From: a virus
Virus genome (UHGV): UHGV-0117802
Length of the DNA: 11,216 nt
Reading direction: 5' to 3' (one strand)
Shown: in pieces, positions 211-9,770 of the stretch
Layout of the letters: the number at the start of each line of letters is the position of its first letter
Numbering within the stretch: position 1 is the stretch's first letter
Position numbers and translations under genes: made by a program
Notes under the pieces: generated by a model
Database searches by the model: none
What the model saw: the letters and a program-made list of their open reading frames with translations, nothing else
What the model was told of the DNA's origin: nothing

Positions 211-1608
211 TTAAGCTTTAATATATTTAAATTTGAAAGGATTCGCGTTAGGATCTAATGGTTTTATTACGCCCTCCTCCCTTAACTTTTGCAATGCCTT
301 TTTAACCTTTTGAAGGTCATCTTCGCCACTTAATTGTCTAACCAACTTATTTGTGAGCTGTCCCGTTGGATTTTCTTTAAAATAATTAATAATCACATCC
401 TCAATTGAGGCTATTGTTTGATGCTTAACTATTACAACAAAATTATTGCCCCTTTCTTCAAATACCGGGGCTACCAACCCGGCCTTACGCAATTCATTTT
501 TTGCAGTATCAAGCCCCTCACCAATATCATGGTTCACTGGATTGGGAAGTTTATGCAACAAACGCACTAAATTTGGATTACGAGAAAACCGCTCTTCATA
601 TAAATTATTAATAGTCATGTATCCAGGCAATCTGCCTGGACTTTGAACTTCAATCCGGTTGTCATAAACTTTTACGTGCACATCATCCTTTTGGCTGTAA
701 TCTCTATGAATAACAGCATTAACTAATATTTCCTTCAATGCTTCTGCAGGATAGCTAAGTTTTACTAGATTTTCGCCGTCTTTGAATGATGCTCCATCAA
801 CATATTCTTTTACTTTTGCTATTGTATTTAAAATAACCACTTCAAGTGGCCCCTCAATCGTTACAGGATCTTCCTGTAATTGTTCACGTTTGTACTCTGC
901 TTCAGTTGTTCTAAGCCGATATACTTTTACAGCACATCGAGTATCTAAACATCCTTGAGGCTCTTCATCAAATAGTAAAACACAGCCTACATTCGGGACA
1001 AATTCACCATCTTTCTTAGTTAACAGTCGTTGTTTTTTTAAAAAAACTCTCGGTGACTGAGTCGTTCCTATTCTACGTAAATAATCAGAATAATATTCAC
1101 TTTCAAGAATATCTTCTACTTCAACTATATCCACTGCTTTTTTTTCATAAGGTTCTGCGCCTTTAGAATAGGAAAGCTGAGTAATTCGCTCACCTTTTAT
1201 TTTTAATTTTTGCGCGTTAGCTCTTATAAAGCAATCGCCAGAGGCCGTGTAATGAACCTTGGGGCTTTTTGGTATATCCACATGTAAAATCAATCCATTG
1301 GAAGGTGTTCTTAAATATTCCACCTCAACATTCTCAACAGCTGGATTAGTATTTTCCAATAAGGTCGAAATAATAGCATTCGCTTCCTCTGGCTCATTGA
1401 AACCAGATATACGCTCTCTCCCCGAAGCTGCATCCTCTATGCCAATATAAATATTACCGCCATCAGCATTTGCAAATGCTACAAAAGTTTCTTGTAATTT
1501 ATTAGGCGCTATTTGCTTACTTTTAAAATCATTGAAATGATCTTCAGTAGTGTTTAACAACGCCTTAATTTCCTGCGCTGATATATCAATTACTTCATAC
1601 ATCTTCAT
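211..1608 (-). CDS. Schlafen/AlbA_2-like N-terminal domain + HATPase_c_4-like C-terminal domain protein (465 aa), function unknown; AT-rich cargo
   Basis: ATG at 1608 with AAGGA RBS. N-terminal motif ETFVAFANADGGNIYIGIED matches the AlbA_2/Schlafen (divergent AAA) core signature AFAN-x-GG-x-IGV-D. C-terminal EILVNAVIHRDY matches the HATPase_c_4 signature. Base composition is visibly more AT-rich than the phage backbone. Confidence 0.6.
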   Translation of the reverse strand: MKMYEVIDISAQEIKALLNTTEDHFNDFKSKQIAPNKLQETFVAFANADGGNIYIGIEDAASGRERISGFNEPEEANAIISTLLENTNPAVENVEVEYLRTPSNGLILHVDIPKSPKVHYTASGDCFIRANAQKLKIKGERITQLSYSKGAEPYEKKAVDIVEVEDILESEYYSDYLRRIGTTQSPRVFLKKQRLLTKKDGEFVPNVGCVLLFDEEPQGCLDTRCAVKVYRLRTTEAEYKREQLQEDPVTIEGPLEVVILNTIAKVKEYVDGASFKDGENLVKLSYPAEALKEILVNAVIHRDYSQKDDVHVKVYDNRIEVQSPGRLPGYMTINNLYEERFSRNPNLVRLLHKLPNPVNHDIGEGLDTAKNELRKAGLVAPVFEERGNNFVVIVKHQTIASIEDVIINYFKENPTGQLTNKLVRQLSGEDDLQKVKKALQKLREEGVIKPLDPNANPFKFKYIKA

Positions 1609-2050: not shown

Positions 2051-2476
2051 ATGAAAAGCTTTTACGTATTAATTTTAATTCTGGTTGCAAGCTTTGTTAG
2101 CGTCCCAGTTCAGGCGGTAACAGCTAAAAACTATGAGAAAGGAACTAAAGCTCAACAGAAATCAATATCTTACCTTTCATGTGCATTCTATGGCAGTAGC
2201 ACACAATTAGATCCTAGCTACACGGAGCAAGTACCTACAGCCGATATCAAGATATTACAGAAAGCAGCTTACCACGCTTACAACGATGCGCTCTCATACT
2301 TTGGCTATGAGGAACCAGATCACGAACAACGCATAATTGATTATGCTGAATTTGTGGCGTCGCAAGAAGCTGTGTTATGGGATAAGCCGGGAATGAATGG
2401 AAAGCAGGTAACACTAATTGCTCGTTCTCTCTACAATGAGAGTAACTGTAACTTGTTACTGGACTCAATTAAGTAG
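2051..2476 (+). CDS. Small secreted protein of unknown function (141 aa) with N-terminal signal peptide
   Basis: ATG at 2051 with GAGG RBS 5 nt upstream. N-terminus MKSFYVLILILVASFVSVPVQA has a positively charged n-region, hydrophobic core and AxA-type cleavage context. It is on the opposite strand to all neighbouring phage genes. No recognisable enzyme motif. Confidence 0.55.
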   Translation: MKSFYVLILILVASFVSVPVQAVTAKNYEKGTKAQQKSISYLSCAFYGSSTQLDPSYTEQVPTADIKILQKAAYHAYNDALSYFGYEEPDHEQRIIDYAEFVASQEAVLWDKPGMNGKQVTLIARSLYNESNCNLLLDSIK

Positions 2477-2635
2477 GAAAAAGATGGTATTTTGCCCGTA
2501 GTTTCAACCTTAATCTCCAAACCTGTCGCAGAACGGGCGTTCACTCATCAAATAAACGCCACACCTAACGCCTCACTGTACTCGTTGTTCAACCTTGCTG
2601 ACGCCAGAAGCAATTTCAGACGCCAGCAACGTTTC

Positions 2636-2869
2636 TTAATGCAGCCAGCTGTCGTCTTCCCACACCTTCTGCATAATTTTCATCACTTGTTTTCTTTCTT
2701 CGTCCAGTTGCAGTCCGGTCAGTTCCACACCGTTAGAGCTACCTTTGCGGATACGAATTACCGTTTTGGGATACAGGGGGCGCAGATTGCGGTAAAGCTC
2801 GGATTCAAGGGCGTCCAGTGTAGACTGGCTAATCTTCTGCTCTTTATCGATCATTATTTCAATGCGCAT
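2636..2869 (-). CDS. DinI-like protein (77 aa from ATG 2869); probable C-terminal part of a Tum-like antirepressor
   Basis: MRIEIMIDKEQ...ALESELYRNLRPLYP...VMKIMQKVWEDDSW aligns by eye with E. coli DinI (MRIEVTIAK...WESADDW). GAGGTGA RBS 5 nt before ATG 2869. The reading frame is also open upstream to 2941. Confidence 0.6.
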   Translation of the reverse strand: MRIEIMIDKEQKISQSTLDALESELYRNLRPLYPKTVIRIRKGSSNGVELTGLQLDEERKQVMKIMQKVWEDDSWLH

Positions 2870-2879
2870 AAAAGTCACC

Positions 2880-3068
2880 TCAGCTGATGACATCCATTGA
2901 GCGGTTGTATTCGTGGGTTCTGATTTTTGCCATGAGTTCATCTGTCAGTTCAGAAACCCACTGCAGGGCCAGCCCCTTCTCTTCATCACTACACTCACTA
3001 GCCGCTACAAGCTTAAGAAAAAAATCAATGCGCTGGAGCTTCAAAGACTCCAAAAAATAGTCCTGCAT
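2880..3068 (-). CDS. Small SOS-controlled protein (62 aa); probable N-terminal part of a Tum-like antirepressor
   Basis: ATG at 3068 with GGAGG RBS. A LexA box lies 43-58 bp upstream. It overlaps the DinI-like frame over 2883-2941 in a different frame. The position (after gene A, next to cos) is that of 186 tum. Confidence 0.45.
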   Translation of the reverse strand: MQDYFLESLKLQRIDFFLKLVAASECSDEEKGLALQWVSELTDELMAKIRTHEYNRSMDVIS

Positions 3069-3110
3069 CTTTCCTCCTATGACACCAAATCAATACTGTA
3101 TACATAACCA

Positions 3111-3126
3111 CTGTTTATATTTACAG
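3111..3126 (-). promoter_or_regulatory. LexA (SOS) box CTGTTTATATTTACAG upstream of the tum-like operon
   Basis: Exact CTGT-N8-ACAG with an all-A/T spacer. A weaker half-site CTGTATAC lies at 3096-3103. On the minus strand a TATACT -10-like hexamer abuts the box. Confidence 0.55.
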
Positions 3127-3220
3127 TATATAATAATCTTACTGATGTAAAACGTTTTTTTACGTTCATCGGCCTGATATGCCTGGTATTATTAAGAGCA
3201 CGAATTGTTAACCCGCGTAA

Positions 3221-5593
3221 TTAATACAGGTTCCGCCACTTATCATCTTCCTTCAGACGCTGGTTCCGATAGAAGATACGCAGGCCTGCTCCTGACGGAA
3301 TACTGCCGCCGCGAAGGAGCAAATCGACTTCTTTCTCGCTGCCATCAAATCCCCTGGACTTCAGTTCATAGACGAGCTGCTGTCGCTGATGGTCTGTAAT
3401 TCGCTGTTTGTAGTCTTTACGCCGTTTCGGTTTCACCTGGCGTAACCTTGCAGCCAGTTCCCGGCGCTCTTTTTTGCTCATACTGTGCAGGTAATCGTGC
3501 AACTCCTTGTCATTCATACGGGTAATATCCGTTCTGGAGTCCCCATCAGCTGATTTGTCTTTCCCTTGTTGGTTCAAATTTTCAGCAAGGGGACAGTTAT
3601 TGCCACGAGTCCAAGGGGCGCAAGCGCCCTGGTCGGCTGCCGCCTCCTGAACATCAACGGCCTTACGAACCATTTTCCACTTCACGGCATGAGTGCAGAT
3701 CTTGCCCTCTGCAATAGGTGACCAGATGCCATAAATACGAATGCCGTGATCGCCATAGGCGGTCGGCTCTTCGTTGATTTCATAAGCGGTTCTGATGAGG
3801 TGATATTTGCGGGGAACCAGTACGCCGCCCTGCTTCATGATGTAGGTGGCAAAACAACCAGCATCAGCAGCAGCCAGGATGGCATCAAGGCGCGGGTTAT
3901 CCAGTACCGGCGCACCTGCTTTTTTGTCCCCCTGTTGCCTTGCCGCCTGACCAGCCAGCAATCGCAGTTCACGGTAAGCCTGACGCCCCGGAATGCCAAA
4001 GAAGCGGAATTGCTGAACACGATGCAGAGACGCCCAGGCATTAACGTATTCAGCATTATCACGCAGGGATTTCCCCGTTTCCTTGCTGATCTCGCCAGCC
4101 AGACCACGCCCGTCAATGTTCTTACTGATGTATTTCGCGATGTAGCTTGTTGGCGTACCTTTGCGCGGGTTAATCAACTCAGACTTAAAGCGCGGCCCAG
4201 TGTTATTGCCCAGTTCCTCACGGTCTTCACGGATGGCAAACTTACGCAGTAATGCAGTGATGGCGCGGCGGTCTTTTTTGCGCATAAAACACAACAGGTG
4301 CCAGTGAACTGTACCGTCATGATGCGGCTCAGCCACCCGCACGCCATACCACCGCAATCCGGCTTTGTGCATCGCCTTACGAAATGCAGCAAACATGCCG
4401 ACTAGATAATCACTGCTTTGTCTTACCGTCGCATTTGTCCAAGTTGGGTTGGGCCTGCCATTATTTAGCGTGGAATGGAAACGTGACGGACAGGTGATGG
4501 TGTAGAAAACGGCGCAGTCACCGCGCATTTCCGCGATAAGCTCCAGGCCTTTAACACAGGCCATCATCTCATTGCGGCGATGCGCAGGGTTGCTGCTGCT
4601 GGCGTTTACCACATCCTCCATGTCCAGCGTGTCGCCGTCTTCGTTCACCAGTTCATGAGAACGAAAAAACTCCAGCGACTTACGGCGCTGCTCACGTTTA
4701 TGCATCACGGCTTCATAGCTGACATAGGGAGATGCTTTTTTGCTGACCAGGCAGACAGCACGCAACTGCTCTTCCCGCCATTCGCAACGCATCTTCCATA
4801 ATTTCCGGTACCACCAGTCAGCGCACAACATACGCGCCAGCGAACCCGGAATGAGTTCATAGGGCACGGGTTTACGGCGGTTTCTTTTCCGGCGGAGTTG
4901 CTCAAACGCAGGCGGGATGACATCCAGACGCAGGGTTTCCGCTGCCACCTTTTCCCATGTCTTGCGGATTTCTTCTGGCTTAACGTCATCGGTGACATAC
5001 AAATCGCCACAAGCTGCATCAAGGCACATGCTCATATGCGCAGCTACCAGGGTGGACAGGCGTTTCACCTGATCCTGACTCATTTCAGGCAGGATCAGCA
5101 GGCCGTCCAGCCCTTCATGGCTTGCCATAAAGCGAAAAGAAGTGGATAGCTGACAGTCGCGTACATGCTCCAGCCGTTCCAGACATGGCTTAATCGTCTC
5201 ACGCAAATAGCGGGAATAAGCCTTTGGCCTGCCCAGGCTGCTGAAGTATTCAATACGTTGCATCAGTGGCTTGCTGATATGGGAAGGCTGGGCATTGACG
5301 TCCGCCAGAATGACCATATCTGGATTAAAACGCTGCTGCTCATGCGCCAGCTTTGCCCGACTAATGAGCTTATCCTGCTCCATTTCGCGCTGGACAGGAT
5401 CACGGGATTCATTAAAGAAATAACGCTCCCAGACCTGATCACTCAGTGCCTCGCGGCGCAGCTGTTCCTGCTCGTTATCGGCAGCGTACAGAGCGATCAG
5501 GTTTGAAAGCGCAGAAACTGAAGATTGCTCTTCTGTCTCTACGTAAGGATTGATTGCTTTTTTCTCAGCATTCCAGGAATAGCTGTAGTTCAT
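3221..5593 (-). CDS. A: Replication initiation protein A (P2 gpA / 186 A family rolling-circle HUH endonuclease), about 790 aa
   Basis: HUH motif in [10 protein letters not shown] and the two-tyrosine motif YIAKYISK, typical of P2 A / phiX174 A type Rep proteins. Size and position in the early operon fit. The track start at 5644 is TTG; ATG at 5593 overlaps the upstream stop as TAATG and has a GGAG upstream. Confidence 0.85.
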
Positions 5594-6423
5594 TACGCAA
5601 TCTCCAGTTCGAGCTGTGAAGGCTGCAAACCATTCGACAGCCAATCAGAAACTGAAGGTGGGCGAACAGCTTCAATTGCACCTTTTAAAATTGCGCAACG
5701 GTTTTTCAGAATGACAGCTTTCAGCTCCTTTTCCGTCAGATTGCGCGAATACTCAGCCTCCTGAATAGCCCGCGTCAGCTCAGGATATTTGCTATTAAAT
5801 TTGGGGACATTGCAGGCAAGATTTGTACTGTCGGCAGTCGCCAGTGGGTAATTTCCCAACACACGACCGTCAAGCATGCGCAAACCATGAACAGCTGTTT
5901 TGAAATTGTGTCGGCAATAAATTGCTTCAAAAGCGTCCTGCATACGACGATGCCAGTGCGCAGTTCTGATAGCCGCATATTCACCAGACGATCCAAAGCA
6001 GACACGAGGCCATTCACGACATAGCTCGATAAGCCGATCGATTGACTCGTGCAGATGCCAGACGGGAGTTGCCTTCCCGTAGAACATTTTCGGAACTTCG
6101 TTTATCAGGGCATCATTGTCACGTTCACCTCCGTCCACAACATCAGGAATGACAAAAAAAGCGACCTTAGGATGGTGGTAATAGTTCAGGAGCCATTTAT
6201 AAAAATCACTCCAGTTAATTTTTAGCCCACGCACCCATGCAGAAAATGCGCCGTTATCAATGCCGACGACCTGAGCGTGCTGAATGGACGCCGCAATCTG
6301 ATCTGGTCGTACATAGGAGACGAAAGCGCCAGCTCCGCTCACCGCAATACGATGAACGTCGCCAGCACTTCCCCAGACAGGCGTCCCATGGAAATGATGA
6401 ATTCCGTGGTGCATTTCTTTCAC
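5593..6423 (-). CDS. Unknown 276-aa protein translationally coupled between Dam and gene A; weak TGT/DpdA-like hints only
   Basis: GTG at 6423 overlaps the Dam stop (GTGA) with a GGGGTG RBS 5 nt upstream; ATG at 6414 is an alternative start. The stop overlaps the A start. His-rich N-terminus (HHGIHHFH). IDNGAF and [10 protein letters not shown] loosely resemble the DSGGF and hydrophobic-D motifs of tRNA-guanine transglycosylase-fold enzymes. No zinc-site CxCxxC. Confidence 0.55.
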
Positions 6424-7274
6424 ACTTGCACCCCGAAAATAACAGTAGAGTCACGTCCCCTACTAAAATCGGCACTAAACCAATTAGCAGATTTAGTGGC
6501 AATCATCTCAGTTGCAAATTTTCCCTCCCCCGCTGTAACGCCGATGCTGCGTTTCGCCCTGATGTAGTGGTGAGTGAAATTACGATAAAGGGACCGGGTC
6601 AAAGACGTGTTACTGTTAGAAACAATGACCGGATGTCCTTCTGATGACCGATGTTCAAGAATGGATGCCAGGTGATACTGATCATCTTCAGTGAAACCAT
6701 CAGTGTGATAGCCGGAAAACGTACCGTCATAAGGCGGATCGCAATACACCACATCCCCCACCTTCAACATCGCCAGCGTTTCATCAAAGCTGGCGCAGAT
6801 AAACGTTGCCCGCTGGGCTTTCTCTGCAAATGCGCGAATTTCTTTTTCAGGGAAATACGGATTTTTATAATTACCGTAGGGAATGTTGAAATGCCCGCTC
6901 TTGTTATAGCGACATAAACCACGGTAACCGTGACGATTGAGATACAGGAAATATACCGCTTTCATGAAATCAGTAATTTCAGTGGAGTAATTAAACTCCT
7001 GCCTTATGTTGTAATAAGCCACCTCCCTGTTTGCTTCCTCAAATAAAGCTCTGGCACGAGATATAAACGCCTCACAATCAGCAGCAACCTTTTTATAGAG
7101 GTTGATTAAATCAGGATTAATATCCGCAACAAGATAGCTGGGGTAATCCGTCTCCATCATCACTGCACAGGAACCCGCGAAAGGTTCAACCAGTCGCGGG
7201 CCAGCAGGAAGATGCTTTTTCAGTTCGGACATTATGGCGGTTTTATTTCCTGCCCATTTCAGGATGGTGCTCAT
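6420..7274 (-). CDS. dam: Dam-family DNA adenine (GATC) N6-methyltransferase
   Basis: [17 protein letters not shown] (FxGxG), [33 protein letters not shown] and VVYCDPPY (DPPY catalytic motif) are near-collinear with E. coli Dam. ATG at 7274 with GGAGGTG RBS; the track start at 7334 is TTG. Confidence 0.88.
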
Positions 7275-9200: not shown

Positions 9201-9770
9201 ATGAATTTGGAGAAAGGCGGACGAGGCGCTATAGAGCGCATGGTAGAAGCTTATGGATTCAAAACTCGACAGGCGTTGTGCGATCATTTAGGAATCTCTA
9301 AAAGTACACTCGCCACACGCTACATGCGTGACTCATTCCCAGCAGAATGGGTAATCCAGTGCGCCCTTGAAACGGGCACCTCGCTTAATTGGCTCACAAC
9401 CGGACATGGTTCAAAGCAAACTTCAGGTAATACAAATACTATGGAAGTTGCTAAATATGTATTATCTGATGGTACCTTGCGTGAAGACGGTTTTTATATT
9501 TTTGATAAGGGATTTCTACCCTCTACGTTTAAAAAACCTTTTGTCATCACAGATAACAATTCTGAATTTATTTGTGATAAAGAATTTGATGATATACGTG
9601 ACGGTAAATGGGTAATAAGTATTGATGGCGAAATAACAATCCGCGATATTACTCGTTTACCCGGTGGAAGAATCTTCGTTGAAGGTGGAAACAGAGCCTT
9701 CGAGTGCAAGATAGAAGATGTTGAAATAATTGGGAAAATTATAAGTTTAACAATTAAGTACGTTAGGTAA
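9201..9770 (+). CDS. cI: CI repressor, phage 186 type (189 aa)
   Basis: N-terminal HTH region RQALCDHLGISKSTLATRYMRDSFPAEWVIQCALETGTSLNWL matches the Phage_CI_repr-type domain. Length is near 186 CI (192 aa). ATG at 9201 with GGAG RBS (the track start at 9195 is GTG). Followed by int on the same strand. Confidence 0.8.
   Translation: MNLEKGGRGAIERMVEAYGFKTRQALCDHLGISKSTLATRYMRDSFPAEWVIQCALETGTSLNWLTTGHGSKQTSGNTNTMEVAKYVLSDGTLREDGFYIFDKGFLPSTFKKPFVITDNNSEFICDKEFDDIRDGKWVISIDGEITIRDITRLPGGRIFVEGGNRAFECKIEDVEIIGKIISLTIKYVR

Follow-up and report, generated by a model that had tools for sequence, protein, structure and literature searches.

A very probable two-cistron SOS-induction operon, with Tum-type and DinI-like genes, in a P2-like prophage of Escherichia coli

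Is the tum-like locus of this phage a single SOS antirepressor gene that has been broken in two, or does it consist of two genes? The question arises from the arrangement of open reading frames (ORFs) in the window, by which is meant the whole stretch of 11,216 nt of UHGV virus genome UHGV-0117802 that was analysed. A preliminary description reported a 62-aa ORF (2880..3068, minus strand) and a DinI-like frame which is open from 2941 down to 2636. The two frames overlap, and a run of five A residues on the minus strand (A5; 2924..2928) lies within the overlap. The tum gene was described as split at this run. Three explanations were offered: a homopolymer sequencing error, an inactivated gene, or a genuine arrangement which either yields two proteins or depends on frameshifting.

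The answer given here, with high confidence, is that the region is an SOS-induction operon of a Fels-2/DuoHS-type P2-like (Peduoviridae) prophage in E. coli, and that it is made up of two separate, closely spaced cistrons. At the nucleotide level, the window and prophage DuoHS of E. coli HS are approximately 95-96% identical. Another E. coli contains a 98%-identical copy of the window, which has the same flanking genes as DuoHS (rcdA/ybjL).

Organisation of the locus

Read along the minus strand, the locus consists of the end of gpA (3221), promoter-like hexamers and a LexA box, a ribosome binding site (RBS), a 62-codon ORF, 10 nt, and a 77-codon ORF. The gpA gene (3221..5644, minus strand) encodes a replication endonuclease and was identified from its ORF and the annotation of its orthologues. 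It is directly upstream and serves as a context marker for the tum position.

The LexA (SOS) box, TACTGTAAATATAAACAGTG, is located at 3109..3128 on the minus strand. Its core, CTGT-N8-ACAG (3111-3126), has a single match in the 11.2-kb window, where 0.10 would be expected by chance, and is 43 nt upstream of the ATG at 3068; the early observation of a 62-aa ORF with a LexA box upstream is borne out. The putative -10 hexamer, TACTGT (3123..3128), lies within the box, and a spacing of 17 nt separates it from the putative -35 hexamer, TTTACA (3146..3151). Promoter p95 of phage 186 is annotated with TTCACA followed by TACTGT, the latter overlapped by the LexA site; the -10 hexamers are identical. 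A generic sigma-70 promoter scan called nothing at the LexA box. The hexamers, read from the sequence and by analogy with p95, are putatively those of the promoter of the 62-aa gene operon. A LexA box is present at the equivalent position in 24 of 33 species loci (described below), approximately 23-95 nt (mostly approximately 50-65 nt) upstream of the 62-aa gene; it is likewise found upstream in 186, PSP3, Fels-2, DuoHS and a Yersinia phage. There is no promoter-like site between the 62-aa gene and the DinI-like gene (a gap of 10 nt), and the two would be co-transcribed from the LexA-controlled promoter.

The 62-aa gene (2880..3068, minus strand) encodes MQDYFLESLKLQRIDFFLKLVAASECSDEEKGLALQWVSELTDELMAKIRTHEYNRSMDVIS. 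Its Shine-Dalgarno sequence, AGGAGG (3073..3078), is 4 nt 5' of the ATG at 3068, and its stop codon is TGA (2882..2880). It is designated a TumA-type antirepressor gene by orthology to Fels-2 STM2728 and DuoHS tum (ECHS_RS04495), with which its product shares 98.4% identity. The AGGAGG stretch, 'ATAGGAGGAAAGATG', recurs in the primers that were used for deletion in DuoHS. The A5 run falls in codons 47-49 (GCA AAA ATC).

The DinI-like gene is TumB-type and encodes 77 aa (2636..2869, minus strand), from an ATG at 2869 to a TAA at 2638..2636. Its Shine-Dalgarno sequence, GAGGTG (2876..2881), was read from the sequence; it is 6 nt 5' of the ATG and shares bases with the TGA of the 62-aa gene. For the 77-aa form (MRIEIMIDKEQ...), the match to the Pfam DinI family (PF06183) has E = 6.6e-23 and 81.3 bits against a cut-off of 24.2, and extends over residues 14-76 and the whole of the profile (positions 1-63 of 63). 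In an end-to-end alignment with E. coli DinI (PDB 1GHH), the first residues of the two proteins coincide. It is 77.9% identical to PSP3 TumB over the full length. It is also 41% identical to residues 71-145 of 186 Tum (E = 3e-24), and this alignment starts exactly at an annotated internal GTG (29292). The statement that 186 Tum has 146 aa and a DinI-like C-terminal part was correct. In E. coli HS and in identical E. coli chromosomes, the RefSeq pipeline (PGAP) calls two genes here: a DinI-like one of 234 nt, and one of 189 nt for a 'hypothetical protein'.

The DinI-like frame is indeed open from 2941 to 2636, and the ORF list gives it as 2636..2941 with 101 aa, since ORFs were counted from the first ATG after the preceding stop. 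Older records with a 101-aa 'DinI family protein' (P0190-P0198) contain the same longest-ORF extension. However, the gene starts at ATG 2869, and the 72 nt of the frame upstream of it (2870..2941, minus strand) are non-coding, as stops in related loci indicate. As listed, the ORFs do overlap over 2880-2941; the apparent overlap of two coding frames arises because the longest ORF was called in a lineage where the DinI frame is open by chance for 72 nt upstream.

A strong RNA hairpin is found directly 3' of the DinI-like gene (2633..2591, minus strand). It has a free energy of -23.8 kcal/mol (z = -3.66) and lacks a U tract. Where the DinI gene is missing, a hairpin of matching sequence comes straight after the 62-aa gene (L017 and L027; that of L040 is partly similar). 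The hairpin probably marks the 3' end of the transcript, either as the end of the operon or as a stabiliser.

The window also encodes a CI immunity repressor of the 186 type (9201..9770, plus strand), against which the antirepressor presumably acts. Its identity is 94.7% to DuoHS CI and 32% to 186 CI (E = 1e-37), and identical E. coli records name the product 'phage repressor protein CI'.

Relationship of the 62-aa protein to Tum

Pairwise methods do not connect the 62-aa protein with 186 Tum. BLASTP gave no alignment between the two; an exhaustive phmmer search with the 62-aa query, covering 1.84 billion representatives, did not reach 186 Tum and contained no fused representative. A Pfam search assigned the protein to no family, and a profile search of the PDB with the 62-aa family found no solved relative.

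A family profile was built from 28 diverse members which are 32-73% identical to the 62-aa protein of the window; the consensus is MxDLFxESxxLQRIxLxxRLVAxxxCSxxDKELALxWxxELTxEL. When this profile was compared with 186 Tum (hhalign), residues 3-44 were aligned to residues 3-44 with a probability of 94.9% and E = 4.5e-8; the alignment with 186 tum that had been proposed as a check thus finds the 62-aa ORF related to Tum. The profile matches a 60-aa 'tum protein' of a Yersinia phage more strongly (96.6%, E = 4.7e-10) and PSP3 TumA weakly (8.6%, E = 0.004), the latter in the equivalent region. PHROG models tie these proteins together independently. The 62-aa protein matches phrog_698 (3.6e-38), phrog_8554 (2.4e-8) and phrog_1993 (2.2e-3); 186 Tum matches phrog_1993 (1e-22), phrog_8554 (1.4e-11) and phrog_698 (2.4e-5, residues 7-44). 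PSP3 TumA belongs to phrog_1993, and phrog_698 is the 62-aa family itself. AlphaFold2 predicts a two-helix hairpin for the 62-aa protein, with helices at 2-23 and 28-61 and a mean pLDDT of 88.5.

The case for Tum homology rests on profile methods, since BLASTP was negative and the profile match to PSP3 TumA is weak. At the profile level, the 62-aa protein can be classed as a homologue of residues 3-44 of 186 Tum. It has the attributes of an antirepressor of the 186 Tum/PSP3 TumA type: N-terminal homology, a LexA box which overlaps the promoter, and a position downstream of gpA in a phage with a 186-type CI.

Conservation of the two genes and variation of the A run

The layout was compared in 33 loci from different Enterobacterales species, which were found with the single 62-aa protein as query and encode relatives of it that are 71-100% identical. 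The 62-aa gene is an intact ORF in 32 of these and encodes exactly 62 aa in 29; the stop codon may be TGA, TAA or TAG. The DinI-like gene is present and intact in 17 loci and disrupted in three. The layout does not depend on it, as it is missing from 13 of the 33, and the 62-aa gene stays intact where the DinI gene is absent or disrupted. The 60-aa 'tum protein' of the Yersinia phage also stands alone, with no DinI-like gene.

In the 17 loci with an intact DinI-like gene, it starts 9, 10, 11 or 12 nt after the stop codon of the 62-aa gene; as in the window, the 9-12 nt gap holds a G-rich RBS (GGGG, AGGG or GAGG). The relative frame of the two genes varies: it is 0 in five loci, +1 in five and +2 in seven. 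The DinI frame is closed 3-12 nt 5' of its ATG in six loci, and the +1 frame contains a stop within the last 60 nt of the 62-aa gene in 26 of 32 distinct DNA sequences. Only 13 of the 34 intact orthologues share the A5 run; the others have GCG AAA, AAG or CGT there, and these differences are mostly synonymous.

Variation in the 62-aa frame is concentrated at third codon positions. The variable sites at first, second and third positions number 18, 12 and 42 in codons 1-47, and 12, 9 and 14 in codons 48-62; the corresponding pairwise differences are 2181, 713 and 7913, and 1749, 1479 and 3321. This dominance of third-position changes shows that translation in the 62-aa frame continues as far as its stop. 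The tail of the protein, ...AKIRxHEYxRSMDVxS, is conserved at the protein level. Both genes are intact ORFs under purifying selection.

The signs of a programmed frameshift are not seen: the slippery homopolymer is not conserved, and the second frame is neither open nor in a fixed register among relatives. Among the loci compared, the conserved unit is stop + RBS + ATG; the slippery site and the overlap are not conserved. Frameshift-dependent expression is therefore not supported. A hairpin at the junction of stop and RBS (2891..2874) was flagged by a terminator scan, but it is rejected both as a stimulator of frameshifting and as a conserved device for coupling. Folding of the junction (2860-2900) gives z = -0.85, no better than shuffled sequences, and the hairpin is not evident in the junctions of other loci.

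Deletion of one A from 2924-2928 does produce a fused frame, as the preliminary description had stated; derived by hand, the product has 143 aa (48 + 18 + 77 residues). The A5 run is exactly where a single-base change fuses the frames, and the real gene might be a single 143-aa tum-like ORF into which a sequencing or assembly error has introduced one A too many. A run of four (A4) is found in otherwise near-identical DNA in one NCBI draft genome and three Logan assemblies (L042-L045). However, several complete E. coli chromosomes carry a 100%-identical version of the 661-bp region, and the region occurs in 1126 of 5426 complete genomes. When alleles were counted with short queries in which every 28-mer spans the run, A5 was found in 984 complete E. 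coli genomes (339 with the S51 variant and 645 with the T51 variant, as in the window), and A4 in none. The two-gene layout in more than 30 species, with differing stops and frames, the third-position variation up to the stop of the 62-aa gene, and the annotation of two genes in RefSeq also argue against an error, which can be discarded at virtually no risk. Inactivation, in which a frameshift has broken an ancestral fused antirepressor and left a prophage that can no longer be induced by SOS, draws on the fused 146-aa Tum of 186, and on one 100%-identical copy of the region which sits in a prophage remnant without most late genes. Against this, DuoHS is equally split and yet is inducible and infectious, and its induction depends on the 62-aa gene. 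The split form is also the norm across relatives, stand-alone 62-aa genes are common, and selection maintains both ORFs. Inactivation is excluded as a general reading, and little more than a trace of credence is left to it for this prophage. A third possibility combines both forms: the locus would make two main proteins, and slippage of a minority of ribosomes or transcripts at A5 would, in this lineage, yield small amounts of a fused, Tum-like product of 143 aa that has a role of its own. The A5 run and the 72-nt open DinI frame do coexist in the Fels-2-type lineage of E. coli and Salmonella, 186 makes nested products from a single tum gene, and natural A4 alleles demonstrate that a fused ORF can exist. 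A run of five is short for efficient slippage, however, and it varies synonymously among the orthologues; the overlapping frame is mostly closed, the register of the two genes is not fixed, and there is no significant stimulatory structure at the junction. Such dual coding is considered very improbable. Of the arrangements first proposed, the genuine two-protein one stands and dependence on frameshifting does not; a split of tum at the A5 run is not supported, given the separate start at ATG 2869 and the conserved layout of two genes.

Fused forms do occur naturally, and they surfaced when the hypothetical 143-aa fusion served as the query. Among hundreds of clusters, eight small ones are truly fused; these have 135-144 aa and one or two members each. 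P0182 and P0185 carry exactly the junction predicted for the A4 fusion (after MAK), and the MAK junction is seen again in P0188 and P0189, which are from a 75%-identical lineage. Other junctions come after MAKIRSH (P0183), ...HEY (P0184), ...NR (P0186) and MAKIRS (P0187). At the DNA level, the change from A5 to A4 has occurred at this very run in the draft genome and Logan assemblies mentioned above, and independently in JGI metagenome contigs and a metagenome-assembled genome (L046-L049). The latter look like a remnant, since a LexA box is missing within 120 nt and gpA was not called in the 1.5 kb upstream. The fused alleles appear to be isolated losses of one base, or errors, at any point of the stretch over which the DinI frame is open by chance, and they leave the two-cistron reading unaffected. 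It had been suggested that the idea of a split tum would fall if related phages conserved the two-ORF layout and no fused homologue existed; the layout is conserved, but rare fused alleles and 186 Tum do exist. Split and fused forms are mutationally adjacent. It is conceivable, though unlikely, that the locus is a living intermediate: fused 186 Tum would have evolved from a two-gene ancestor. In the Fels-2-type lineage of E. coli and Salmonella, a single slip at A5 would suffice for a fused Tum like that of 186, and fusions do recur in nature, by A5 to A4 changes in at least two diverged lineages and at four other junctions. If this were true, fused alleles might alter induction, for example by tethering RecA-filament binding to antirepression.

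Function and comparison with known systems

To our knowledge, direct binding of CI is known only for 186 Tum, which is reported to bind it. The most direct evidence for the function of the 62-aa gene is genetic and comes from DuoHS. This prophage is inducible by mitomycin C and infectious, and induction is lost in lexA(Ind-) and Δtum backgrounds (PMC12055606). According to the supplement of that paper, the tum gene which was deleted is ECHS_RS04495, the 62-aa gene. The primer for the deletion joins ATG to TGA and then reads 'GGTGACTTTTATGCGCATTG'; DuoHS Δtum, in which mitomycin C no longer caused lysis, therefore still had its DinI-like gene (PMC12055606). By analogy with this 98.4%-identical orthologue, the 62-aa gene of the window would be needed for SOS induction; binding of CI by its product is inferred. 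For Fels-2 and PSP3, a stop codon has been described as dividing tum into two genes, of which the upstream one is the antirepressor (PMC3121763). A literature search on tumA/tumB naming returned unrelated papers only.

The operon probably works as follows. In a healthy lysogen, LexA would sit on the box that overlaps the -10 hexamer, just downstream of gene A, and hold the operon off. DNA damage would lead to RecA-stimulated cleavage of LexA and derepression of the operon, and one mRNA would give two small proteins. The 62-aa protein, if it acts as 186 Tum does, would bind the 186-type CI, block its binding to the operator, and free the early lytic promoter. The 77-aa protein would most likely bind RecA filaments and tune the SOS signal, as may be expected of the DinI family. 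A two-cistron operon of this kind would neither need nor use a frameshift.

The module is found in approximately one-fifth of complete E. coli genomes and is very common in prophages of E. coli, Salmonella and Klebsiella; it is ordinary, widespread and previously described. Nearly all records list the 62-aa gene as a 'hypothetical protein', and older ones over-extend the DinI gene to 101 aa. It is suggested that the pair be annotated as a 62-aa Tum-type antirepressor and a 77-aa DinI-like protein, and not as a broken tum. Prophages with the two-gene module should be assumed to be SOS-inducible. More generally, where longest-ORF calls create a pattern of overlap plus homopolymer, the start codon should be checked before frameshifting is invoked.

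The closest counterparts of the pair are STM2728 and STM2726.1 in Fels-2 of Salmonella LT2 and ECHS_RS04495 and ECHS_RS04500 in DuoHS. Both prophages have the same order as the window: gpA, LexA box, 62-aa gene, a 10-nt gap, and the 77-aa DinI-like gene. Their DinI-like protein is 100% identical to that of the window. The 62-aa protein differs by one residue in each: the window has T51 where DuoHS has S51, and the final residue of the Fels-2 protein is N rather than S. The window differs from both in its downstream cargo genes and has an extra 276-aa ORF before gpA. The split form is the norm, and is found in Fels-2, SopEPhi, RE2010, Cartapus, Klebsiella phages and PSP3.

The two-gene split of tum was already known from the literature (PMC3121763) and from the PSP3 record. 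PSP3 resembles the window in that a two-cistron tum lies behind a LexA box, downstream of gene A; tumA is annotated there as 'similar to 5' end 186 tum; UV induction of prophage' and is accompanied by tumB. It differs in that TumA belongs to the 186-type subfamily (phrog_1993) and the gap between the genes is 3 nt.

Phage 186 shares the promoter/LexA architecture and the order of A followed by tum. However, its Tum is a single polypeptide of 146 aa in which the two modules are joined by a linker of approximately 25 residues, whereas the window encodes separate proteins. The Trp37 which is invariant in the 62-aa family is Leu in 186 Tum. An RBS-like AAGGAGGG and an annotated GTG start are retained in 186 exactly at the DinI boundary, and the record states that the internal GTG at 29292 gives a 'truncated Tum - modulates SOS induction'. 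186 Tum has the appearance of two cistrons joined together, with the initiation signals of the second preserved; the direction of this change is inferred. Gifsy-type phages are likewise comparable, as they have a LexA-repressed operon which encodes a small antirepressor (GfoA/GftA) and a separate DinI homologue (PMC3121763). In these phages, however, dinI comes first, the antirepressors and repressors are unrelated to those of the window, and the phages themselves are lambdoid.

Fused alleles and phage 186 tum

The 62-aa TumA-type antirepressor gene and the DinI-like gene are joined into one protein of 135-144 aa in rare natural alleles (P0182-P0189; loci L042-L049). These arise by single-base deletions at several positions. 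The change proposed in the preliminary description, A5 to A4 at the run equivalent to window 2924-2928, is among them and is found in two diverged lineages. There are no fused alleles among 984 complete E. coli genomes with the A5 allele. Phage 186 tum retains the sequence AAGGAGGG, which resembles an RBS, together with a GTG annotated as an internal start (L003 7280-7295); this start coincides exactly with that of the separate DinI-like gene in the window. These signals at the DinI-like boundary fit an origin of 186 Tum by fusion of two former cistrons.

Annotation and surroundings of the two genes

Start-codon calls for both genes differ between databases (P0190-P0198; phage 500465-1, L001 1552-1842 and 1867-2184). 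Public records give the DinI-like gene a length of 101 or 105 aa; for the 62-aa gene they use in-frame starts further upstream, which yields 84-109 aa. The latter gene is almost always labelled 'hypothetical protein'; one record calls it 'levan regulatory protein'.

An extra CTGT-N8-ACAG (the LexA box core) lies within the DinI-like coding sequence at about 1794-1810 in L009, L012, L014, L015, L019, L020, L022 and L029. The window has no second match there; such matches are probably due to chance.

A strong minus-strand hairpin without a U tract (2591-2633; -23.8 kcal/mol, z = -3.7) lies 3' of the DinI-like gene. In the species loci L017 and L027, which do not have the DinI gene, a matching hairpin immediately follows the 62-aa gene. 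L040, also without the DinI gene, has a partly similar hairpin 3' of the 62-aa gene.

Accessory regions

A 276-aa minus-strand ORF (5593-6423), with no Pfam or PADLOC matches, is located between the dam methylase and gpA genes. The ORF lies in a stretch (window 5515-6499) that is absent from DuoHS and from E. coli locus L041, the latter otherwise 98% identical.

The cargo region, a possible accessory or defence locus, is bounded by the SOS operon and the likely end of the portal gene. It contains two divergent ORFs. One (211-1608, minus strand) encodes a 465-aa Schlafen/AlbA_2 and HATPase_c_4 protein, which has weak PADLOC matches to pAgo-associated models; the other (2051-2476, plus strand) encodes a 141-aa product whose N-terminus resembles a signal peptide and which matches no family. 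DuoHS carries different genes at this position.
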